Counted from the first letter of the whole stretch, positions 22,409 to 57,251 are shown. The stretch: DNA of 63,423 nt, filler included, from 4 parts of 4 records of this genome joined end to end with filler, not necessarily neighbours in it; one strand, 5' to 3'. The notes: generated by a model from the letters alone, not told the origin. Made by a program: numbers and translations.

Positions 22409-22508
22409 NNNNNNNNNNNNNNNNNNNNNNNNNNNNNNNNNNNNNNNNNNNNTTAATTAATTAANNNNNNNNNNNNNNNNNNNNNNNNNNNNNNNNNNNN
22501 NNNNNNNN
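22409..22508. other. Artificial contig spacer
   Basis: N runs flanking TTAATTAATTAA (stops in all frames); composition changes abruptly across it. Confidence 0.98.
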
Positions 22509-35386: not shown

Positions 35387-35539
35387 AATATATATCTTTA
35401 ATGAAGTGCAAAGGTACAGATTATAAGCGGTCTAATACTAAGTTCTAATTAGAATAGAACTAAAGTTTTAATATCCATTTAACACTACATTATTTTAGCA
35501 GTTTTTAATTGATTGTATCTTGTAGTGAAATCTGTAATT

Positions 35540-36535
35540 ATGAAATATCTTATATACACGCTTTTATTATTTTCTACAGTACTTACTGCACAACAGGACT
35601 CCATTAAAGCCTTAGATATTAATTTGAGTAACTATTCATATCCTTACGAGGTTTCTACCCTTACTATTCAAGCTCAAAACCAAAACCTTTCTTTTGCCTA
35701 TATGGATGTTAAGCCCGATAACTATAATGGTAAAAATGTTATGCTCTTGCACGGTAAAAATTTTAATGGAGCATATTGGGAAACAACTATTAATGCTTTA
35801 GCAAAAAAGGGATATCGTGTTATTGTACCAGACCAAATAGGGTTTGGAAAGTCTACAAAACCTGAACATTTTCATTATACATTTCAGCAATTGGCTTTAA
35901 ACACCAAGACCTTGTTAGATACTTTAAACATTAACAAAACTGTAGTTTTAGGACACTCTATGGGAGGAATGCTGGCTACTCGTTTTGCTTTAATGTATCC
36001 TGAAACTACACAATAATTGGTATTGCTTAACCCTATTGGTTTAGAAGACTGGAAGCTTAAAGTGCCTTATAAACCTATAGAATGGTGGTATGCAAATGAG
36101 TTAAAGAAGGATTATGAATCAATTAAAGCATACCAGAAAAAAAATTATTACGACAACACTTGGAAACCTGAGTATGATGCTTGGGTAAACCTTTTAGCAG
36201 GTTGGACATTAAGTGAAGATTATGAAAGAATATCTTGGAATGCTGCACTTACCTATGATATGATTTTTACACAACCAGTAGTATATGAATTTAAACAAAT
36301 TGAAAGTCCTACTTTATTAATCATAGGCACAAGAGATCGTACTGCGTTAGGAAAACCATTAGTGTCTGAAGACGTAAGAGCAACAATGGGATTATACGAC
36401 CAACTAGGTAAAGAGACTCGAGATAAAATACCAAATGCTACTTTGGTAGAGTTGGAAGATTTAGGCCACTTACCTCATATAGAAGATTTTGAAAGGTTTA
36501 TAACACCTTTATTAAACTATTTAGAGCGCCAGTAA
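35540..36535 (+). pseudogene. Secreted alpha/beta hydrolase interrupted by one in-frame TAA
   Basis: ORFs 35513-36016 and 36017-36535 are in the same frame. HGKNF, DQIGFGKS and GHSMGG lie before, and GHLPH after, the TAA at 36014-36016. Confidence 0.75.
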
Positions 36536-36575
36536 CACTAGCGCTCTAAACTCAATCTTATATATGTTTCTTTTA

Positions 36576-37214
36576 TTAAAGTGCCTTTAGTGCATCTTTA
36601 ATAGGAGTTTCACCTTCAATCATTTCAAAAATTGCATTTTGAGCATAATCATCTGAAACTACTGTAGCTAAAGTTTCAGCTACATCTGCTCGACTAATTT
36701 TTCCGCCTTTTTCAAATTGATCTTTAGTTTCAATCTTGCCAACAGCATCATCATTCTTTAAAGTACCTGGTCTTACAATAGTGTAAGTTAAACCACTTGC
36801 TTTTAAATGTTCATCTGCTAAATGTTTTGCTTTTAAATACACTTGTAATGAGTCACTGTCTTCCGGATGTCCTGCTCCTATTGAGCTTAACATTACAAAT
36901 TTTTTGATGCCGCTAAGCTTAGAAACATCTATTAAACGTTTAGCACTTTCTTGGTCTATAACTATTGTCTTCTCGTCTGATGTACCACCACCAGAACCAG
37001 CTGCAAATACAACGCGATTTACATCTTTAACTACATGAGTTAAATCTTTTTCAAGGTCTCCTAATATTGTTTGTATGTTTTCGGTTTCAAATTGAGCTTT
37101 CTGGTCTTCTTTTCTAACCATTGCTACGGGTTCAAAATTAGATGAATCTTTAAGTTTCATCACAATTTGCTTTCCTGTTGTTCCGTTTGCGCCTACTATA
37201 AGTACTTTTTCCAT
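36576..37214 (-). CDS. Atypical SDR / NAD(P)H-binding oxidoreductase
   Basis: GANGTTG, FAAGSGG, YLKAK, IVRPG, ISRADVA. Confidence 0.9.
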   Translation of the reverse strand: MEKVLIVGANGTTGKQIVMKLKDSSNFEPVAMVRKEDQKAQFETENIQTILGDLEKDLTHVVKDVNRVVFAAGSGGGTSDEKTIVIDQESAKRLIDVSKLSGIKKFVMLSSIGAGHPEDSDSLQVYLKAKHLADEHLKASGLTYTIVRPGTLKNDDAVGKIETKDQFEKGGKISRADVAETLATVVSDDYAQNAIFEMIEGETPIKDALKAL

Positions 37215-37458
37215 ATCTGTTTTTTATTTAAAATTAAAGGAAAAGAACAACCTAGGTAGCTGTAAGGTGAACTTTATCATTTTATTAATACTCTTACTTA
37301 ACTCAGATTAGCTTTAAATGTTAAACCCTTATTAAGAGTAACTTAAAAAGCACTTAAAACTCCTAAAACACACCGCATTTAAGGGTGTTTTAACAAGTGC
37401 TACTATTCTATATTGTTTAAAACAAAGTATCTTGTGCTAAACAAAAATTCACGTTACT

Positions 37459-40371
37459 TTGAATCGAAAAATTACATTTCTAGTACTGTTTTCAATATGT
37501 ACTTTTAGCTTTTTACAAGCACAACAATTATCTAACCAAGACATATCTAATCGAATTGAAGAGTACAAATCTTTAGATCGTGGTCCTTATAAAAAAATTG
37601 AATGGTTTTGCGAAGATGGTACTCGTAGAGACTCTAAAGACCCTTGTCCAGATAAAATTGGTGGTGGTATACAACACGCTAGTTACAAGGATAATTTAAT
37701 TGAAATTCAGAAGAAAAATCATTTATTTTTCTCAGATATCTTAGCTTACACAGAGCAAGGAGAGTTTTGGGATAGCAGAAATAACAATTCTCGCATTAAA
37801 CAATATCAACTTAATAAATACCTACAACGTATAGATGATGGTTGGGTAAACAGACGCGCACAATATTACAGAGGTTCTGTTCAATCTGAAGATGAAGAAG
37901 AATGGGGTATAGATTTTTATAACTGGTTATTATGGAGTGATGCTCGTATAGATGCAAATTACTTTTTAATTAGAGAATCTGTAAAAGACATTCCTCACAA
38001 ATCTGAAACACAAGAAGGTGCAATTATCAGAACACTATCTAAAACTATAGGCGATAATTACTCTAGGTTTATGGATATCAGGACTAAAATTCATAACCAA
38101 CCAGAAAAGGCCAATATTCAATTAGTTAAAGAGTTTCAAGAGAAAAATGCTGAAAAGCTTCCTGAGAAAATAAAAAAACAAACCGATTCACTTATAAAAG
38201 TGATGACTGCGTATTACCAACCTATTGATATTAATGAATTTAAAGCTAATGCAAGGGTGCTACCAAACGGTTCATACTTAAGGACTAAAATTGAAAAATT
38301 TACTGAAATTCATAAAGACACTATTATAACTTCTGAGTTTATTGAAGATGCATCAAACCTAATGTGTGATATAAGAACAGAATTAACAAGTATTAGAAGC
38401 ACATCAGACAGGCTTGCAGCTTTAGATATTTCAACAGATTTAGAAAATCTTATTTTTAAAACAGCTCCAGATTGGACACCTACAACTGTCGCAGAACTTT
38501 TAGATAAGATTTACGCACTTAGTCAAGCTTCAGCTAGTGCAGGATTTGTAGAATGGTGGGAATGGAATGAGGTAGACCATTTACTGCAAAATTCAAAAAA
38601 CAAAGCGCTTACATTAGATGAGCTTAACCAAAAATTAGATGTTGCCAGGAGTCAAGTTGAATGGAGTGCAGGAATGGTAAATGCCATTTATGGTGACGAT
38701 GTTGAAACTTATGCAGGTTTTGAGCCTAAAGCAAATTCTTTTATAGACGATCGCATAAGATCTTCATTAGCATTACAATTAGGGAATAGTGTTGGAGAAC
38801 TTGGTAACTTTATTGCAGAAGAAGCTAATCTCTCAAATAAAGTAGAAGGTGTAAGCAACCAAAGCAGTATAAGAGGTCTAAATCCTGGGTATGCACTTGG
38901 TGAACTTGTAGTTGTAAAAAATGCAGTAGACCATTACGATGTATCTCCTAATAAGATATATATTTTTCAAAGACCACCTTCAGATCTTAAACCAGTTGCT
39001 GGTATTGCTACAGTTACAGAAGGTAACTTGGTATCACACGTGCAATTGTTAGCTCGAAATTTAGGAATTCCAAATGCTGTTATTTCTAATGAAACTATAG
39101 ATGATATAAGCAAGTATCATGGCAAACAGATGTTTTATGCTGTTTCTAATAAAGGAACTGTTATCTTGAAGCCAGCAGATGATATGAGTAATGATGAAGA
39201 AGAGCTTTTTGAAGTAAAAAAACGAGATCAGGAAAAAATTGCAGTACCTACTCAAAAAATAGATTTAAGTAGAACAACTCCTATGGATCTTAGTGAGTTA
39301 AATGCTGCAAGTTCTGGTAAATATTGTGGTCCTAAAGCAGCCAATTTAGGACAATTAAAACAAATGTTTCCAGATAAAGTGGTTAATGGTTCTGTTATCC
39401 CTTTTGGGATATTTAAGGAGCATATGAACCAAGATATGCCATTACAAGAAGGCAGTTATTGGGATTATCTTACAGAGACTTTTGCTCAAGCTTCTAAAAT
39501 GAGAGCAGAAGATTTTTCTGAAGAGCAAGTACAATTATGTACTTTGGACAGAATGCTTCAGCTTAGGGAAGCTATCGCAAAAATGCCATTAAAGCAAAGC
39601 TTCTTAAATGATTTAGAGCAGAGTTTTCAAAAGAACTTTAATACTTCAATTGGCGGTACACCTGTATTTTTAAGAAGTGATACTAATATGGAAGATTTAG
39701 ATAGCTTTACAGGAGCAGGTTTAAATCTAACTGTTTTCAATGTAAGAGATAGAGAAAAGATTTTAAAAGGAATTAAAGATGTTTGGGCTTCTCCATATAC
39801 AGAACGTAGTTTTAAATGGCGACAACAATATTTAAATAATCCTGAAAATGTGTATCCGTCTATTTTGATCATTCCTTCTGTAGATGTTGAGTATTCTGGT
39901 GTATTAATTACAAAAGGCATAAGCAACAATAATGAAGACGACTTAACAGTAGCTTTCTCAAGAGGTGCTGGTGGCGCAGTAGATGGTCAATCTGCCGAGG
40001 CTTGGTTAATTGACACCTTTCAATCTGCACGTTTACTTTCTCCTGCTAGAGAACCTTATTACAACAGGCTACCTGCAAATGGTGGATTAGAACGAAACAT
40101 TGCAACGTTTGAAGCTCCTATACTCTCAGAAAAAAATATTGGAGATATAAGAGATTTGGCCAAAGATATAAGAGTAACCTTGCCTAAAGCTACTACGGCA
40201 GATAATACTGGACCTTATGATGTAGAGCTTGGCTTTTTAAATAATAAACTCTGGTTATTTCAAATTAGGCCTTTTGTAGAAAATGACAATGCCAAAAGTT
40301 CTGAATACTTAAAATCTATTAGCCCAGAAGTTGATGGTTCAAAAACTATTTCTTTAAACACAACATTATAA
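37459..40371 (+). CDS. Signal-peptide-bearing PEP/pyruvate-binding (PPDK/PEPS ATP-grasp) protein with phospho-His swivel domain
   Basis: Signal peptide MNRKITFLVLFSICTFSFLQA-QQ; EGNLVSHVQLLARNLGIPNA (His527); GPKAANLGQL, FLRSDTNMEDLDSFTGAG, IKDVWASPY, DVELG...LFQIRPF. Confidence 0.88.
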   Translation: MNRKITFLVLFSICTFSFLQAQQLSNQDISNRIEEYKSLDRGPYKKIEWFCEDGTRRDSKDPCPDKIGGGIQHASYKDNLIEIQKKNHLFFSDILAYTEQGEFWDSRNNNSRIKQYQLNKYLQRIDDGWVNRRAQYYRGSVQSEDEEEWGIDFYNWLLWSDARIDANYFLIRESVKDIPHKSETQEGAIIRTLSKTIGDNYSRFMDIRTKIHNQPEKANIQLVKEFQEKNAEKLPEKIKKQTDSLIKVMTAYYQPIDINEFKANARVLPNGSYLRTKIEKFTEIHKDTIITSEFIEDASNLMCDIRTELTSIRSTSDRLAALDISTDLENLIFKTAPDWTPTTVAELLDKIYALSQASASAGFVEWWEWNEVDHLLQNSKNKALTLDELNQKLDVARSQVEWSAGMVNAIYGDDVETYAGFEPKANSFIDDRIRSSLALQLGNSVGELGNFIAEEANLSNKVEGVSNQSSIRGLNPGYALGELVVVKNAVDHYDVSPNKIYIFQRPPSDLKPVAGIATVTEGNLVSHVQLLARNLGIPNAVISNETIDDISKYHGKQMFYAVSNKGTVILKPADDMSNDEEELFEVKKRDQEKIAVPTQKIDLSRTTPMDLSELNAASSGKYCGPKAANLGQLKQMFPDKVVNGSVIPFGIFKEHMNQDMPLQEGSYWDYLTETFAQASKMRAEDFSEEQVQLCTLDRMLQLREAIAKMPLKQSFLNDLEQSFQKNFNTSIGGTPVFLRSDTNMEDLDSFTGAGLNLTVFNVRDREKILKGIKDVWASPYTERSFKWRQQYLNNPENVYPSILIIPSVDVEYSGVLITKGISNNNEDDLTVAFSRGAGGAVDGQSAEAWLIDTFQSARLLSPAREPYYNRLPANGGLERNIATFEAPILSEKNIGDIRDLAKDIRVTLPKATTADNTGPYDVELGFLNNKLWLFQIRPFVENDNAKSSEYLKSISPEVDGSKTISLNTTL

Positions 40372-40372
40372 T

Positions 40373-41683
40373 ATGAATACATTTTTAAGATACATAGCGG
40401 TTATAGGTGTTTGCCTTATCGCATTTGCATTTACAACCACTAAGTCTTATCCTATAGATGGATATGCAACAACAGGTATAAAGCGCCTATTACAATTAGA
40501 ACGTATACAAAAAGACAGTACTAAAGAATTTAGAAGAATTAGAAAAGGAGCCCTACTTCCTTTAAACTGCATAAAACTTAATCTTACAGGAAAACAGAAC
40601 AGTACTCTGAATGAACTTTTAGTAGAAGACCCAGAGTTTTCTAAAAAGCTTAAAGCAATCTTACCAAGTACTAGAGGTTATTCTGTAACTGTAATGGATA
40701 TGACAAATCCAGACAATTTAAAATATGCAGGTTATAATGAACGCGCAGGTTACCAACCAGGTAGCGTAGGAAAAATAATGGTAGCTAATGCTTTATTTAC
40801 ACAATTAAAAAAAATATGTCCTGAATCTTGGGATGCTCGAACAGAGATTTTAAAAAATAAGGTTATAAGAGCTGGAGATTGGGCATTATACGATCACCAT
40901 ACAGTGCCAATTTACGATGTAGAAGATGATAAACTTATAAAACGTACAGTAAGAGCAGATGATACGTTTACACTTTATGAATGGGTAGACCATATGATGA
41001 GTGTAAGTAACAACGGTGCTGCAAGTGTGGTTTGGCGAGAAGCTGTATTAATGGAAGCCTTTGGTTACGATTATGTTAGCCTTACAGAAGAACAAGCTAA
41101 TGCGTATTGGAAAGATACAGACCGTAGAGAGTTAACTCAACTCTCTAATGATGTTGTAAACAAACCAATTCGGTTTTTAGGTATTACTGAAGATGAGTGG
41201 CGTTTGGGTAGTTTCTTTACAAGCGGAGCAAACAAACATGTAGGTGATATTGGTGGAAGTATTGGTACACCGCTCGGTCTAATGAAATATTTAGTACAGT
41301 TAGAACAAGGTAAAGTTATAGATCCTGAAAGCAGTTTAGAAATTAAACGTTTGTTGTATATGACGGACCGTAGAATTAGATACGCCTACTCTCCTACTTT
41401 AAATGATGCTGCAGTTTTCTTTAAATCTGGTAGTTTATACAGTTGTGATCGTAGTAATGGCCAATCTTGCGCAAAATATGCAGGAAACGTTTACAATTAT
41501 ATGAATAGCGTTGCTATAGTAGAGCATCCTGATGGAAAAAAATATTTAGTATGTCTTATGACAAACGTATTAAGGAAAAACTCTGCGTATGATCACCAAG
41601 CGCTTGCTGGTAGGATAGATAATTTAGTAACAGAACGAAATGCACCTGTCGAAGTTTTAGAAGAAACAAAAGACGAGAGCTAG
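40373..41683 (+). CDS. Secreted serine hydrolase, beta-lactamase/PBP fold
   Basis: Signal peptide; S131-V-G-K, S212-N-N and K351-S-G active-site motifs. Confidence 0.8.
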   Translation: MNTFLRYIAVIGVCLIAFAFTTTKSYPIDGYATTGIKRLLQLERIQKDSTKEFRRIRKGALLPLNCIKLNLTGKQNSTLNELLVEDPEFSKKLKAILPSTRGYSVTVMDMTNPDNLKYAGYNERAGYQPGSVGKIMVANALFTQLKKICPESWDARTEILKNKVIRAGDWALYDHHTVPIYDVEDDKLIKRTVRADDTFTLYEWVDHMMSVSNNGAASVVWREAVLMEAFGYDYVSLTEEQANAYWKDTDRRELTQLSNDVVNKPIRFLGITEDEWRLGSFFTSGANKHVGDIGGSIGTPLGLMKYLVQLEQGKVIDPESSLEIKRLLYMTDRRIRYAYSPTLNDAAVFFKSGSLYSCDRSNGQSCAKYAGNVYNYMNSVAIVEHPDGKKYLVCLMTNVLRKNSAYDHQALAGRIDNLVTERNAPVEVLEETKDES

Positions 41684-41711
41684 ACTTTTTAATATATATA
41701 TATATTTAAAG

Positions 41712-41749
41712 AAAGCCTCTTCCGGATAATGTGAAGAGGCTTTTTTTTT
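41712..41749 (+). terminator. Intrinsic terminator
   Basis: AAAGCCTCTTC...GAAGAGGCTTTTTTTTT. Confidence 0.85.
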
Positions 41750-42059
41750 ATTGCTTTAAATCATTCTCACCCCATTGGTCCAAACCTATAAGAATATCTT
41801 TTAAGCTGAAACCTCGAGAGGTTAATTTATATTCTACTTTAGGAGGTACTACTGGATAAACTTTTCTAGCAACCAAGCCATCTTTTTCTAATTCTCTAAC
41901 AGTTTGTGTAAACATTTTGTTTGATATCTCTGGTACTTTCTTCTGAAGCACACCAGATCGTAAAGGACCATCTAACAAATGAAATAACACTAAAGGTTTC
42001 CATTTTGTTCCAATTAATGACATTGTATAATGTAACGGACAAGAAATAGTTGTCTTCAT
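41748..42059 (-). CDS. HxlR-family winged-helix regulator
   Basis: SCPL, GTKWK, LEKDGLVARKVYPVVPPKVEYKLT. Confidence 0.93.
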   Translation of the reverse strand: MKTTISCPLHYTMSLIGTKWKPLVLFHLLDGPLRSGVLQKKVPEISNKMFTQTVRELEKDGLVARKVYPVVPPKVEYKLTSRGFSLKDILIGLDQWGENDLKQ

Positions 42060-42090
42060 AATCTATATAACATATTGTAATTCTGCATTT

Positions 42091-42143
42091 TACTCTTTTA
42101 GGTAACTATAGCACTTTTAGGTAAGTTATTGCTTTTGAGGTAA
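42091..42143. promoter_or_regulatory. Putative HxlR operator repeats
   Basis: Three CTTTT(A/GA)GGTAA direct repeats, GGTAA spaced 19 nt apart, in the divergent hxlR-VOC intergenic region. Confidence 0.55.
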
Positions 42144-42177
42144 ATATAAAGTATTTTTACATCATAAAATTATAACT

Positions 42178-42690
42178 ATGAAAGCTAATAAGAATTATCC
42201 TAAGTCTTTTTCACACATAGGTATTACCGTTCCAGATATACAGAAAGCAGTGTCATTTTACTCAGATGTTATGGGCTGGTATGTTATTATGGAACCTTCA
42301 AAAGTTAAAAAGGAAACAGATACAGCAATAGGCCAAATGTGTATCGATGTATTTGGTAATGATTGGGAAGAGTTTGAAATTGCTCACTTGGCAACTTCAG
42401 ATGGTATTGGTGTAGAGCTTTTCTCTTTTCCGCAAGGTGTAAAGGAAGCTCCAGAATTTAATCCTTTTAATACTGGTTTATTTCACTTTTGTATTCAAGA
42501 TCCAAATATTGAAGACCTTATTGAAAAAATTAAAGCTTATGGTGGTAAACAGCGTATGCCAATTAGAGAGTATTATCCTAAAGAAAAACCTTTTAAAATG
42601 TGTTATGTAGAAGATCCTTTTGGGATTGTTTTCGAAATCTATACACACAGTTATGAGTTAACTTACTCTTCTGGTGCTTACACAGGTTAA
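42178..42690 (+). CDS. VOC/lactoylglutathione lyase-family protein
   Basis: FSHIGITVPDIQKAVSFY, GLFHFC, YVEDPFGIVFEI. Confidence 0.9.
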   Translation: MKANKNYPKSFSHIGITVPDIQKAVSFYSDVMGWYVIMEPSKVKKETDTAIGQMCIDVFGNDWEEFEIAHLATSDGIGVELFSFPQGVKEAPEFNPFNTGLFHFCIQDPNIEDLIEKIKAYGGKQRMPIREYYPKEKPFKMCYVEDPFGIVFEIYTHSYELTYSSGAYTG

Positions 42691-42697
42691 TACTATT

Positions 42698-42733
42698 TAC
42701 AGGTAGTAGCCCTATAAATAGCTACTACCTGTA
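42698..42733. terminator. Terminator hairpin between convergent genes
   Basis: 13-bp perfect stem TACAGGTAGTAGC / GCTACTACCTGTA. Confidence 0.75.
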
Positions 42734-42734
42734 T

Positions 42735-45554
42735 TTATAAAGACTGTAAATTGTCCTTAGCCTGTATTGCAAACGTTCTAATTTTTTTGTGATGATGATT
42801 AATAAGTGGCTTTACCAATTTTAAATAACGCTTATCATTTAAATGCTTGAGAAGATACAATACTGCTAGTTTAATTTTAAGATCTCTTCCCTTAAGCAAG
42901 CGTTTAAAACACGTATATTCTGAAGGAATGTCACTTAACATAGTATCAGACACATCATTAGATGCAACAAGAGTTGTATTTTCGACAATTGGTAATAAAG
43001 TACTTTTTAAGTTAGGTGTTAGCAGCGTATCTAAAAACTCGATAGCATTGGCTTGCATATCTTTCTTTTCGCTTATAATACCTTGATATGCAATATCTAT
43101 ATCCTTTTGCTGGTAACGTAATCCTAATAACTGAAAAATTTGTTCCAAACCATTTTCTAAACGTCTGTCTAACAAATCTATTAAACTTTGTCGCGCAGAA
43201 AATTCATCTAAATCGTAATCAAAATTATTTTGATCTTCAAACCTAGAACTTATTTGTTTCTGTAAAGACATAGCACTTAATGTTTCCTGATACATTTTAC
43301 ATTCAGTTAAAAGACGTCTTACAATTCTACGTTTACTAAATGTTAGTTTTGGTTTGTTATTCTTAATCTTGTTTAATGCTTTGGCAGACTCTAACCTTAA
43401 CACAATGTCTTTATGCCTTAGGAGTTTAAATAACTCGTCTACAGCAGACTGTGTTTCAAATTTAGCCATTATTGCAGGAATAAATTGCTTTGCATTTTCT
43501 GCTACAGAGCCCTTATGAAGCATAATTCGTAACGTCTTAATCATTTGTGGGCCAAACTTAAACAGAGCTTCCATAGCTTCTTCTCTGAATTTTTTTAATA
43601 GAAGAAAGTCTAATAAATAGTTTATAAAGACTGCAGCTGCACTATCTCCTGCTGCACGAATAGCAGCCAATACTACACGTTCATCTCTATTGTTAAAATG
43701 TGCTGTTATAAATGAATAATATTTAGGGTCGTGAGAATAACCAACAGCTCTTAAAAGCTCAATTGTTTCTTCAGTACGATGGTGTTCACTAGGTAGGTTT
43801 ATGTTTATTATAGCTTGCTCCAGTCTATTATGTAAATCATATTGTCTTCCTATTGATGCGTTATCTCTAGATTCTTTAGACAAACATAAAAGAGCCACAG
43901 ATGAGATATATGGATCGTCATGATTTAAATAGGAATTAAAAATCTTTAGATTGTTTACGTACGTATGCGTTAAAAGATATTCCATTGCTGAAAATACAAC
44001 GTAATCATTCTTAGAGTGTACGAGTTTTTCAACCTCAACAATAGCGGTTCCTTTGTCTAAATGATATAGATTAGAAATAGCTTCAGCTTGAATTCTTGGG
44101 TTTTTATGATGAAGTAATTGAATAACTAAAGTCTTTAATCGTTTATCTGAAATAGAATTGATACGTTTCAACATATATAATATTTCAGAATCTTCACCTT
44201 TTTCTAGTACCTCTATAACTGTTTCCTTTGTAGCTTTTGTTACTTTTTTGGGTGTTGTAGAAGATGTTTTTTCAGCGAAGCTTAATAAATTACTTCTAAA
44301 CGCATTATAATAGCTTTTCCTTACCTTAAAGATTACGATAACCCAAACTACAATTAAGATTAAAATAATAAGGGTAACATATATTGTAGGCAGTTTTAAA
44401 CCTCTTATTACAAAGATGAGAAGACAACCTGCTATACCAGTTGCAATACTATCTACAACAACATCTATAAAAGCTTTAGTTTTATTTTTTAAATCATTAG
44501 AAACTGGTAGATAAAGTAACTCTGTAGATGCTTTACTAACAGATTGCTTAAAGCTTCCATCTATCGCTTTTATTATAATTACAACCCATAATTCTGGGAA
44601 TACAAGGAACAGGACAGCTGCAACACCAATTCCTATTGGCAATAGTAATAAACTGGTTGTAACACCTAGAAAATTGAGTACACGTCTTGTAAAGAATAAC
44701 TGTATTCCCAATGAAATAACATTAAAGGTGGAAAACCAAAATCCGAAGAATGAAGCCAATTCATCTGAATCTGGAATCTTACGATATGCCAAATCACTAA
44801 ACTGATAATCTACCAACTTAGCCATTAAAACTCCCAAACCAATAATTCCCGCTATGTAAGTAAGGTGTTTAGATTTTAAGACAAGTTTAAAAGAGGTGTC
44901 TTTAGAGTATTCACTTCGTTGTTTTTGCCTGAAAAACCCTAGTTTCTTAACGTGTCTATTCCATATGAAATTTAGTATTGGTATACACGCTAGTATTAAT
45001 ACAGCCGCAATTAAAATTAAGTTTTCATTTCCGATTTTTGGCGCTAATAAGGTTGTTAGGTAACCTCCTACAATACCACCAGTTATGGCACCTGCACCAA
45101 TGAACCCGAAAAGTCGTTTTGCTTGCCGTATATTAAATACAAGATTGGCAAGCAACCAAAATTGAGATGTAGTTAATAACGCGAATAATGCTACCCATAC
45201 ATAGTATATATACAAAAGCCATTCTGCAAAAAACTTAAGGCTGAGAATAATTTTTAGTGATATAAACACTAAACTGGACACCAAGATGGTTACCGTAATT
45301 ATCTGATTTAAGGGAAAGTGCTTTAATGCTTTATTATAAAAAAAAGATGTGGCAACAGCTACTAGAGCTACCAGCAAAAAAGCATAAGGAAGCGCCTCTG
45401 ATGTAAGCTCAGAAAGAAATAATGCATTTACCGTAGGCTTTACAATTAAAAGCGTAGAAATAATGATAAATACATAAAGCTGTAATAGCAAAGAAACGGC
45501 AAATTCGCCGCTTCTTATGCCAAATGTTTTTAGAAAAAATTGTTTAATTTTCAC
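42735..45554 (-). CDS. Npt1/Npt2 (TLC ATP/ADP translocase)-family transporter fused to HEAT repeats
   Basis: N-terminal ~410 aa multi-TM domain with KPTVNALFL, QFWLLANLVFNIRQAKRLFGFIGAG, LVDYQF, ELLYLPV...KAFID; C-terminal HEAT-like repeats; ANAIEFLD. Confidence 0.85.
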   Translation of the reverse strand: MKIKQFFLKTFGIRSGEFAVSLLLQLYVFIIISTLLIVKPTVNALFLSELTSEALPYAFLLVALVAVATSFFYNKALKHFPLNQIITVTILVSSLVFISLKIILSLKFFAEWLLYIYYVWVALFALLTTSQFWLLANLVFNIRQAKRLFGFIGAGAITGGIVGGYLTTLLAPKIGNENLILIAAVLILACIPILNFIWNRHVKKLGFFRQKQRSEYSKDTSFKLVLKSKHLTYIAGIIGLGVLMAKLVDYQFSDLAYRKIPDSDELASFFGFWFSTFNVISLGIQLFFTRRVLNFLGVTTSLLLLPIGIGVAAVLFLVFPELWVVIIIKAIDGSFKQSVSKASTELLYLPVSNDLKNKTKAFIDVVVDSIATGIAGCLLIFVIRGLKLPTIYVTLIILILIVVWVIVIFKVRKSYYNAFRSNLLSFAEKTSSTTPKKVTKATKETVIEVLEKGEDSEILYMLKRINSISDKRLKTLVIQLLHHKNPRIQAEAISNLYHLDKGTAIVEVEKLVHSKNDYVVFSAMEYLLTHTYVNNLKIFNSYLNHDDPYISSVALLCLSKESRDNASIGRQYDLHNRLEQAIININLPSEHHRTEETIELLRAVGYSHDPKYYSFITAHFNNRDERVVLAAIRAAGDSAAAVFINYLLDFLLLKKFREEAMEALFKFGPQMIKTLRIMLHKGSVAENAKQFIPAIMAKFETQSAVDELFKLLRHKDIVLRLESAKALNKIKNNKPKLTFSKRRIVRRLLTECKMYQETLSAMSLQKQISSRFEDQNNFDYDLDEFSARQSLIDLLDRRLENGLEQIFQLLGLRYQQKDIDIAYQGIISEKKDMQANAIEFLDTLLTPNLKSTLLPIVENTTLVASNDVSDTMLSDIPSEYTCFKRLLKGRDLKIKLAVLYLLKHLNDKRYLKLVKPLINHHHKKIRTFAIQAKDNLQSL

Positions 45555-45574
45555 AAAGTGAAACTAAACATAAA

Positions 45575-45994
45575 TTAACTGTTTTCAAAGGATCGCAGTT
45601 TTTTTATGATTTTTTCAACAGGAACTACTAGGTTCCGTATAATCTGTTCTCCATTAGGATCATCGACCAAGGCTACTAATATATATTTCCTGCCATCTTC
45701 TCCCCAAACAAGTATAGAATCTGAGTGGAAATTTCTCCAAGATCCAGATTTTCTAAACAACCTTGCATTAGGTGCTATTCTGTCTAAGGTATTTACAAAT
45801 TTATGATGTAATGCTGGGTTTTCCATGATATCCAACATTTCTTGGGAGCGTTCTTTATTAACCAAGTTACCAGTAACTAATTTGTAGTAAAACCTACAAA
45901 CTTGCTTTACTGAAGCTGCGTGACTTAATCCCTTAATAGGATCTGGCACTCTATTTCCTTGTGCAGCATAACGCTTGCCTACCCAAAGACCACC
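45575..45994 (-). CDS. Serine hydrolase (class A beta-lactamase-like), C-terminal part
   Basis: GGLWVGKRYA..., RKSGSWRNFHSDS (KSG motif), YILVALV; 5' part cut by the contig end. Confidence 0.75.
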   Translation of the reverse strand, partial: GGLWVGKRYAAQGNRVPDPIKGLSHAASVKQVCRFYYKLVTGNLVNKERSQEMLDIMENPALHHKFVNTLDRIAPNARLFRKSGSWRNFHSDSILVWGEDGRKYILVALVDDPNGEQIIRNLVVPVEKIIKKLRSFENS

Positions 45995-46094
45995 NNNNNN
46001 NNNNNNNNNNNNNNNNNNNNNNNNNNNNNNNNNNNNNNTTAATTAATTAANNNNNNNNNNNNNNNNNNNNNNNNNNNNNNNNNNNNNNNNNNNN
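45995..46094. other. Artificial contig spacer
   Basis: N runs plus TTAATTAATTAA. Confidence 0.98.
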
Positions 46095-57151: not shown

Positions 57152-57251
57152 NNNNNNNNNNNNNNNNNNNNNNNNNNNNNNNNNNNNNNNNNNNNTTAAT
57201 TAATTAANNNNNNNNNNNNNNNNNNNNNNNNNNNNNNNNNNNNNNNNNNNN
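57152..57251. other. Artificial contig spacer
   Basis: N runs plus TTAATTAATTAA. Confidence 0.98.

Follow-up and report, generated by a model that had tools for sequence, protein, structure and literature searches.

A gene cluster around a predicted exported dikinase

This work concerns a window of 63,423 nucleotides (the whole stretch of DNA that was analyzed, filler included) and, within it, a gene for a His-dependent dikinase of 970 amino acids (aa) that is predicted to be exported. Close to it lie genes for two predicted exported serine enzymes of the penicillin-binding protein (PBP) type and for a transporter of the ATP/ADP-carrier family, TLC/NTT (Table 1). The initial annotation of this DNA described the dikinase; the conserved gene neighborhood, which it did not mention, is in our opinion the more interesting part of the locus.

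Table 1. Features of the dikinase cluster, with the basis on which each was assigned
Feature	Position	Strand	Basis
Dikinase gene, product predicted to be exported, 970 aa, TTG start	37459-40371	+	Translation of the open reading frame; AlphaFold2 model
Sec/SPI signal peptide, residues 1-21, predicted cut before Q22-Q23	37459-37521	+	Sequence; family-wide hydrophobic N-terminus
Conserved head of N-terminal domain, residues 24-232, with three beta-strands and helices	37528-38154	+	Alignment, model
Helical body of N-terminal domain, residues 233-465, less conserved	38155-38853	+	Model, alignment
Phospho-His swivel, about residues 468-600; His527 codon at 39037-39039	38860-39258	+	8a8e alignment, weak PF00391
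C-terminal PPDK_N ATP-grasp nucleotide-binding domain, about residues 605-950	39271-40308	+	Pfam, Foldseek, conserved residues
SxxK serine enzyme, predicted to be exported, 436 aa, Beta-lactamase2 family	40373-41683	+	PF13354, 41.9 bits (cut-off 22)
HxlR regulator	41748-42059	-	Domain scan
Glyoxalase-fold gene	42178-42690	+	Domain scan
TLC/NTT nucleotide transporter (about residues 1-410) fused to C-terminal HEAT repeats, 939 aa	42735-45554	-	PF03219
Second PBP-like serine enzyme, predicted to be exported, 3' part, 139 codons; upstream of transporter	45575-45994	-	Beta-lactamase2

The start of the dikinase gene is tightly constrained. The TTG at 37459 is the sole in-frame ATG, GTG or TTG up to codon 204; seven codons upstream of it, at 37438, is a TAA in the same frame. 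Because there is only one in-frame start before codon 205, both the start and the N-terminus of the protein are fixed, and since the TTG is unique, no alternative start removes the signal peptide while keeping the conserved residues 30-204. The N-terminus reads LNRKITFLVLFSICTFSFLQA, followed by QQ at the predicted cut, and it shows all three parts of a Sec signal, namely the n-, h- and c-regions. The Gln that follows the predicted cut fits the Q-rule of Bacteroidetes, as set out in an excerpt of PMC5837995. The open reading frame is present as the initial annotation described it, and the motifs it reported (WFC51EDG...DPC63P, S526-H527-VQLLARNLGIP, GPK626AANLG and FLR739SDTNMEDL) occur at the residues it gave. 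Its signal peptide is borne out by the forced TTG start together with the signal-like N-termini found across the family (see below); it had also named a different true start as the way in which this peptide could be lost, and none is possible before codon 205.

Domain order and identity of the dikinase

Pfam assigns the C-terminal part of the protein (residues 623-950) to PPDK_N (PF01326) with E 3.4e-20 and a score of 73 bits, where the cut-off is 27. The swivel is matched weakly by PF00391 (residues 510-541, E 0.029, 14.4 bits, below the cut-off of 23.1). A phmmer comparison with PDB sequences aligned residues 469-546 with the swivel of the phosphoenolpyruvate (PEP) synthase 8a8e (379-461), with S526-H527 in register, and residues 633-941 with the ATP-grasp of the same enzyme, with D921-x-E923...Q935-x-R937 on the matching PEP-synthase motif. 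A PPDK_N match above its cut-off and an aligned swivel with the S-H motif place the protein in the His-dependent dikinase superfamily, and it carries every sequence feature expected of an active His-dikinase. We take K626, R739, D921, E923, Q935 and R937 to be the equivalents of K22, R92, D321, E323, Q335 and R337 of pyruvate, phosphate dikinase (PPDK), an assignment that is assumed rather than computed. A Pfam scan of residues 1-470 gave no match. The domain order is an unassigned N-terminal domain, then the His swivel, then the ATP-grasp, so that the initial claim of a His domain preceding a C-terminal ATP-grasp, the order of the plant glucan, water dikinase GWD1, agrees with both the Pfam and the phmmer results.

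The dikinase is not a PEP synthase. Of the best-scoring PEP-synthase equivalogs of NCBIfam, NF004881 gave 91.3 bits (cut-off 883), and the two other models (TIGR01418/NF005057) had scores of 71.8 (cut-off 598) and 59.8 (cut-off 739.75). Pfam detected neither PEP-utilizers_C nor any other barrel in the protein at E ≤ 1, and the secondary structure of the full-length model contains no beta/alpha barrel. For the cluster as a whole we used a relative as comparison genome, which is near-identical (99%-identical copies) and 99% complete (hereafter G001). The PF02896 barrel has no match in G001, and it matches in all 14 control genomes. The initial annotation had held that a pyruvate-binding barrel is missing and that the name 'PEP synthase' would be wrong. 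Both statements stand: the equivalog scores and the missing barrel support them, and some public records do bear that name.

The dikinase family

Relatives of the dikinase are numerous. A word-index search returned 1807 proteins at E ≤ 0.001 among 8000 candidates scored, and the best 120 of these 1807 are 951-992 aa long with 54-99% identity. Their source names include 'PEP/pyruvate-binding domain-containing protein', 'phosphoenolpyruvate synthase' and 'pyruvate, water dikinase', and for distant members the clusters that were looked up gave no name. An exhaustive search recovered 2879 representatives at E ≤ 1e-3, 922 at E ≤ 1e-10 and 326 at E ≤ 1e-30. From 150 listed representatives we picked 75 full-length ones (27-52% identity) and aligned them with the window protein (n = 76). 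All 75 align with it end to end, and the full architecture is kept down to 27% identity. The catalytic residues are nearly invariant: H527, K626 and R739 are each found in 74 of the 76 sequences and S526 in 75, and in the ATP-grasp D921 is conserved in 74/76, E923 in 76/76, and Q935 and R937 in 75/76 each. Conservation extends to the N-terminal head (Cys51 75/76, Cys63 74/76, E146 76/76), and the conserved Cys51/Cys63 pair would fit an exported protein with a disulfide bond. Under a strict test of the h-region, 63 of the 76 N-termini are signal-like, and of the remaining 13, 12 fall just short; one member has no hydrophobic N-terminus, possibly through a mis-called start.

The N-terminal domain

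AlphaFold2 modeled the full-length dikinase with a mean pLDDT of 93.1 and a pTM of 0.91, and the N-terminal domain alone (residues 24-465) with a pLDDT of 94.9. Foldseek matches to the full model were confined to the C-terminal ATP-grasp (rifampin phosphotransferase (RPH) 5hv1, E 2.6e-12; HpeI 9goj; PEP synthase 2ols; PPDK entries). In the N-terminal model, long helices come after a small head of three strands. The head has conserved motifs of its own (RGP..WFC.DG, C63, GG.QH, DDGW..R.A..YRG..Q.EDE, R191 and K210.H212..P215...D219), a pattern to be expected if the head holds another active site or a binding site, and we propose that the head (residues 24-232, with the Cys51/Cys63 pair) is the acceptor site.

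The initial annotation had called this domain unrecognised and had suggested a fold search, and our results agree: the domain is conserved and has no recognisable relative by sequence or fold. Foldseek gave no PDB match for residues 24-465 at E ≤ 0.001. A wide search with VIA-align found generic helical-hairpin or bundle matches only (at best Z 11.3 over 84 residues; Z 9.1), and the fold matches of this domain all fall within model residues of about 155-440, so that the conserved head at 24-175 is barely covered. Residues 24-232 had no usable match in the ESM Atlas. A head profile built from 66 sequences found among PDB sequences only RNase H 2lsn at a non-significant E of 0.33; in that match the head's first strands (WFC.DG ... 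GGG.QH; residues 24-100, 37528-37760) lie against the first strands of RNase H. A complex prediction for the N-terminal domain with the SxxK enzyme, run without controls, scored 0.00 in both runs, which speaks neither for nor against binding.

Neighboring genes

The open reading frame of the SxxK enzyme begins 2 nt beyond the dikinase stop codon, and its product has an N-terminal hydrophobic segment. A set of 48 sequences shows no variation at S131, K134, S212, N214, K351-S352-G353, C358 and C366. The SxxK, SxN and KSG motifs, together with the Beta-lactamase2 match, identify it as a penicillin-recognising serine enzyme, and it does not qualify as a class A beta-lactamase (21 bits with NF033103, whose cut-off is 200). 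It had no PDB sequence match at E ≤ 0.01, and its profile reached only E ≥ 0.16.

The transporter gene is convergent to the SxxK gene. Its product scores 55.1 bits against PF03219 (cut-off 21), which assigns it to the TLC/NTT family, and contains 12 hydrophobic segments by manual count, the automatic hydropathy segmentation being poor. The HxlR and glyoxalase genes that separate the SxxK and transporter genes (41748-42690) are present in G001 and have homologues in 0 of 80 related genome loci; they are a lineage-specific insertion into the cluster.

The second PBP-like gene runs into one of three sites in the window (22409-22508, 45995-46094 and 57152-57251) that each consist of two 44-base N runs separated by 12 bases. 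At 45995-46094, the one of the three that was read, the spacer between the N runs is ttaattaattaa, with stops in all frames. The paired N runs and their spacers give the window the appearance of a concatenation of four contigs, and genes that meet these joints are cut by assembly and not by biology. We had considered the second PBP-like open reading frame (124 codons, 45575-45949) as a truncated gene and rejected this, as the N-linker joint cuts it. The gene is intact in G001, where it adjoins the transporter gene (303 aa, L161:5916-6827), and it encodes about 305 aa in 62 of the 80 loci.

On the other side of the dikinase, a gene for an exported alpha/beta hydrolase (35513-36535, + strand) has an in-frame TAA at codon 168 (36014-36016). 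Its counterpart in G001 is uninterrupted (340 aa, L161:15861-16883), and the TAA results from a nonsense mutation or else from an error in sequencing.

Conservation of the cluster

Two sets of loci were used to follow the cluster beyond the window: 80 genome loci at 51-66% identity (Flavobacteriaceae, Saprospiraceae, Lewinellaceae and Marinilabiliales) and 80 distant metagenome loci at 28-37% identity to the window dikinase (G+C content 0.35-0.73, mostly high). Among the genome loci, the SxxK enzyme is encoded downstream of the dikinase in 79/80, and the transporter and the second PBP-like gene are present in 65 and 64; all other window neighbors tested occur in 0-3 of the 80. When the count is restricted to the 62 genome loci flanked by 6 kb or more on each side, the three partners are found in 62, 53 and 54, respectively. 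The corresponding numbers for the distant loci are 61, 39 and 45 of 80, raw counts that are lowered because many of these contigs end near the dikinase gene, and 12, 9 and 10 of the 12 distant loci that have flanks of this length. Across Flavobacteriaceae genera the cluster is kept at 50-66% identity in a vertical-looking manner, and no mobile-element context was seen.

In the distant loci the gene order and strands around the transporter are unlike those of Flavobacteriaceae, and proximity is retained. In the two distant loci that were scanned (L093:13204-14538 and L153:13266-14564), the transporter is a stand-alone TLC protein of 432-444 aa without HEAT repeats, and for this reason the transporter module itself appears to be the conserved partner. 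One distant homologue of the transporter also has a weak match to MFS_1. As a separate observation, a gene for a class B acid phosphatase with a hydrophobic N-terminus (PF03767, E 2.6e-35; L096:12237-13127) lies near the cluster in 10/80 distant loci; this enzyme could process periplasmic AMP or phospho-products.

The phyletic distribution was studied in 301 evenly drawn Bacteroidota genomes. The dikinase occurs in 8 of the 301, and 6 of these 8 belong to the 23 genomes drawn from the same family. The 8 best matches to the HEAT-fused transporter (NTT-HEAT; E ≤ 1.3e-140) fall in exactly the 8 dikinase genomes. G001 has a single PPDK_N gene and a single TLC gene, and the two are neighbors.

RNA libraries also contain the cluster. 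Six metatranscriptome runs hold 63-79% of the words sampled from 37300-41700. Contigs from four marine metatranscriptome runs (four studies) cover all of 36500-45990 at 95-99% identity, with the dikinase/SxxK junction bridged by one contig in each run. Since such libraries may contain DNA and the contigs are strandless, this is a weak indication of transcription and co-transcription. A scan of 37150-42800 for promoters and terminators was uninformative: promoter-like sites were rarer than in shuffled sequence, and nothing resembling a terminator was found.

Proposed function of the cluster

Based on these observations, the reading that we favor, with a modest degree of confidence, is that the protein is a periplasmic X, water dikinase that obtains ATP through the linked TLC/NTT transporter and is partnered with the two PBP-type serine enzymes. 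What has been observed in its favor is the domain anatomy, the conservation of the catalytic residues, the forced signal peptide, the linkage of the genes and their phyletic co-occurrence. The predicted export of the dikinase is supported by the forced start, the family-wide signals and Cys51/Cys63, as well as by the C358/C366 pair and hydrophobic segment of its SxxK partner. The transporter is the dikinase's sole nucleotide-related partner and a member of the ATP/ADP-carrier family.

The reaction would be X + ATP + H2O -> X-P + AMP + Pi (inorganic phosphate). ATP would be bound by the C-terminal ATP-grasp, with His527 on the swivel becoming pyrophosphorylated, and the swivel would then carry the beta-phosphate to an acceptor held in the head of the N-terminal domain. 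The linked transporter, which is HEAT-fused in Bacteroidota, is proposed to export the ATP, because the periplasm itself lacks a source of ATP; export might take the form of an exchange against AMP, ADP or Pi. Both exported PBP-type enzymes would act on the dikinase's substrate, which, as a guess from the nature of these partners, is most likely part of the cell envelope or contains D-amino acids.

Several points weigh against this proposal. Export, His phosphorylation, nucleotide transport, the direction in which ATP moves and the identity of the acceptor are all things that we infer from sequence, and the searches with the N-terminal domain yielded no sequence or fold relative that would name the acceptor. 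The TLC match is modest: the transporter scores 42 bits against TIGR00769 (cut-off 387), which makes it a divergent member of the family, and its substrate could be other than ATP. The NTTs characterised in the sections of PMC5381601 available to us are importers or exchangers of intracellular bacteria and plastids, and we found no precedent for net ATP export by an NTT. The manual segment count and the positive-inside rule place the HEAT domain in the cytoplasm, from where it could not dock the dikinase. The transporter gene is absent within 8 kb in 9 of the 62 well-flanked genome loci; five of these nine were tested, and all five genomes carry an orthologue elsewhere (E ≤ 2.5e-239). Moreover, NTT-HEAT paralogues occur in 15 of the 301 genomes without a dikinase (E ≤ 1e-20; E 1e-102 to 1e-23). 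Finally, related genomes are not independent observations, which applies to the linkage and phyletic counts alike, and the RNA-library contigs show neither strand nor transcript ends and may include DNA. Among the dikinase-free genomes, G105, G003, G213 and G261 hold paralogues with 27-32% identity (E 1e-95 to 1e-102), G105 having two on one contig; the transporters of these four must have other partners or roles.

A system working in the opposite direction deserves consideration. The exported enzyme would then make periplasmic ATP from AMP, Pi and an environmental X-P, much as PPDK forms ATP in some microbes, and the NTT would import it. Gene linkage and co-occurrence fit this equally well, import agrees with the direction in which NTTs have been characterised, as importers or exchangers (PMC5381601, in part), and the class B acid phosphatase of about 10/80 distant loci hints at periplasmic handling of phosphate or nucleotides. 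However, Pi-releasing water dikinases are as a family strongly exergonic in the forward direction, the dikinase has no PPi-type site or donor-binding barrel, and the two PBP-type enzymes would be left without a role; we regard this reversal as unlikely. A related question is whether the transporter moves ATP at all. It might instead carry the dikinase's substrate or phospho-product, with the enzyme drawing on extracellular or leaked ATP or on another donor. The divergence of the TLC domain (the low PF03219 score, the weak MFS_1 match of the distant homologue and a TIGR00769 score far short of its cut-off) speaks for such a role. Some members of the NTT family carry NAD or S-adenosylmethionine (SAM) rather than ATP. 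NAD and SAM carriers also figure in reference titles of PMC5381601. On the other side, the ATP-grasp residues are nearly invariant, which calls for a nucleotide triphosphate donor outside the cytoplasm, and the cluster encodes no other supply route. We judge a transporter of this kind improbable.

An exported detoxification or resistance module, in which an antibiotic or xenobiotic is phosphorylated in the periplasm, by analogy with cytoplasmic RPH and rifampin, beside two beta-lactamase-like hydrolases, has several features to recommend it: RPH chains are the best structural matches of the ATP-grasp, NCBIfam places this domain nearest the RPH-like PRK06241 group, both partner enzymes belong to Pfam Beta-lactamase2, and a distribution of 8/301 genomes is patchy and accessory-like. 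Yet the RPH equivalogs score very low (NF041857 43.3 bits against 999; NF000283 20.5 against 1700), no RIF-binding domain is among the fold matches listed for the N-terminal domain, and the class A beta-lactamase model is missed by a wide margin. The second enzyme's nearest solved relative is instead the cyanobacterial PBP-type Tll2115, and the deep, vertical-looking conservation of the cluster with no mobile-element context seen is also unfavorable to a resistance module, which we consider a doubtful explanation. Least probable by far, and in our judgment close to negligible, is an ordinary cytoplasmic paralogue of PEP synthase or PPDK with a mis-called start. The names of relatives in some public records point that way, but no other in-frame start precedes codon 205, the signal peptides are family-wide, the domain order is reversed, neither the dikinase nor G001 has a PEP/pyruvate barrel, and every PEP-synthase equivalog cut-off is widely missed.

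Returning to the periplasmic dikinase supplied with ATP by its linked transporter, the wider implications are considerable. The periplasm is usually described as being without ATP, and periplasmic phosphorylations are thought to use lipid donors instead. We tentatively suggest, as a possibility that we would not yet call probable, that several free-living Gram-negative lineages maintain a periplasmic ATP economy, in which ATP exported by an NTT powers the His-dikinase and, with the two PBP-type enzymes, the remodelling of an envelope substrate. This substrate might be peptidoglycan or a D-amino-acid peptide and might, by analogy, be opened by phosphorylation as GWD opens starch to hydrolases. 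If true, this would assign a first function to NTT(-HEAT) transporters, which are orphans in free-living bacteria, and would contradict the rule that periplasmic chemistry does without ATP. At the least, the linkage of an exported ATP-grasp enzyme with an ATP/ADP carrier across deep divergence turns deliberate delivery of ATP to the periplasm into a testable question, and likewise the role of the NTT(-HEAT) transporters of free-living bacteria, which a 2017 survey left uncharacterised in the sections considered here (PMC5381601). The analysis also defines a large, mis-named protein family with a putative acceptor domain of about 440 aa that has no recognised relative. Literature searches on exported or periplasmic dikinases and on NTT-HEAT function did not turn up a description of the system; these transporters might be among the entries of the trees and tables that supplement PMC5381601.

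Comparison with known systems

The transporter shares the TLC plus HEAT architecture of the NTT-HEAT fusions, which Major et al. (2017; PMC5381601, in the sections available) describe as a monophyletic group, widespread among free-living bacteria, whose function is uncharacterised. Unlike our proposal, those sections suggest no link of such fusions to an exported ATP-using enzyme. With regard to the serine enzymes, the solved sequence closest to the second enzyme is that of Tll2115 (PDB 2j7v; E 0.0098), a cyanobacterial PBP-A type protein that is class-A-beta-lactamase-like, and both partners match Pfam Beta-lactamase2, although their relationship to Tll2115 is very distant.

Among dikinases, PEP synthase and PPDK likewise combine a PPDK_N ATP-grasp with a His swivel, and their D-x-E...Q-x-R and S/T-H motifs align with those of the window protein (8a8e). 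In contrast to the latter, 8a8e has its ATP-grasp (62-361) before its His domain (379-461), and the dikinase described here has no PEP/pyruvate TIM barrel and is predicted to be exported. RPH and the PRK06241-type small-molecule dikinases (PigC/HapC, HpeHI and MarK) have the nearest ATP-grasp domains by both structure (RPH 5hv1, as above; HpeI 9goj, E 3.3e-11) and sequence (NF004881, 91 bits; PigC, 59 bits, far below the equivalog cut-offs). These enzymes too are built of three modules, an ATP-grasp, an acceptor domain and a His swivel, as described in part of PMC4844700. Whereas RPH is cytoplasmic and has these modules in that order, the window dikinase is a circular permutation of it (acceptor, swivel, ATP-grasp), and its acceptor domain has no detectable likeness to that of RPH in fold searches.

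The closest parallel in overall layout is provided by the plant enzymes GWD1 and phosphoglucan, water dikinase, and the likeness is one of architecture only. The dikinase differs from GWD in that it has no CBM45, CBM20 or other carbohydrate module of Pfam at E ≤ 1, possesses a bacterial signal peptide and is accompanied by PBP-type enzymes and an NTT transporter; no GWD chain is among the PDB sequence or fold matches listed, and it is uncertain whether the PDB set searched holds a comparable chain. In potato GWD1 the fourth domain contains the catalytic His, and the domain that binds ATP is C-terminal (PMC13553574, in part). According to the same source, GWD1 and phosphoglucan, water dikinase share with the protein described here the succession of a substrate-binding N-terminal part, a His domain and an ATP-binding domain. 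The chemistry implied for the window dikinase, in which ATP would be converted to AMP, Pi and a phospho-acceptor by way of a phospho-His, is also that of GWD.

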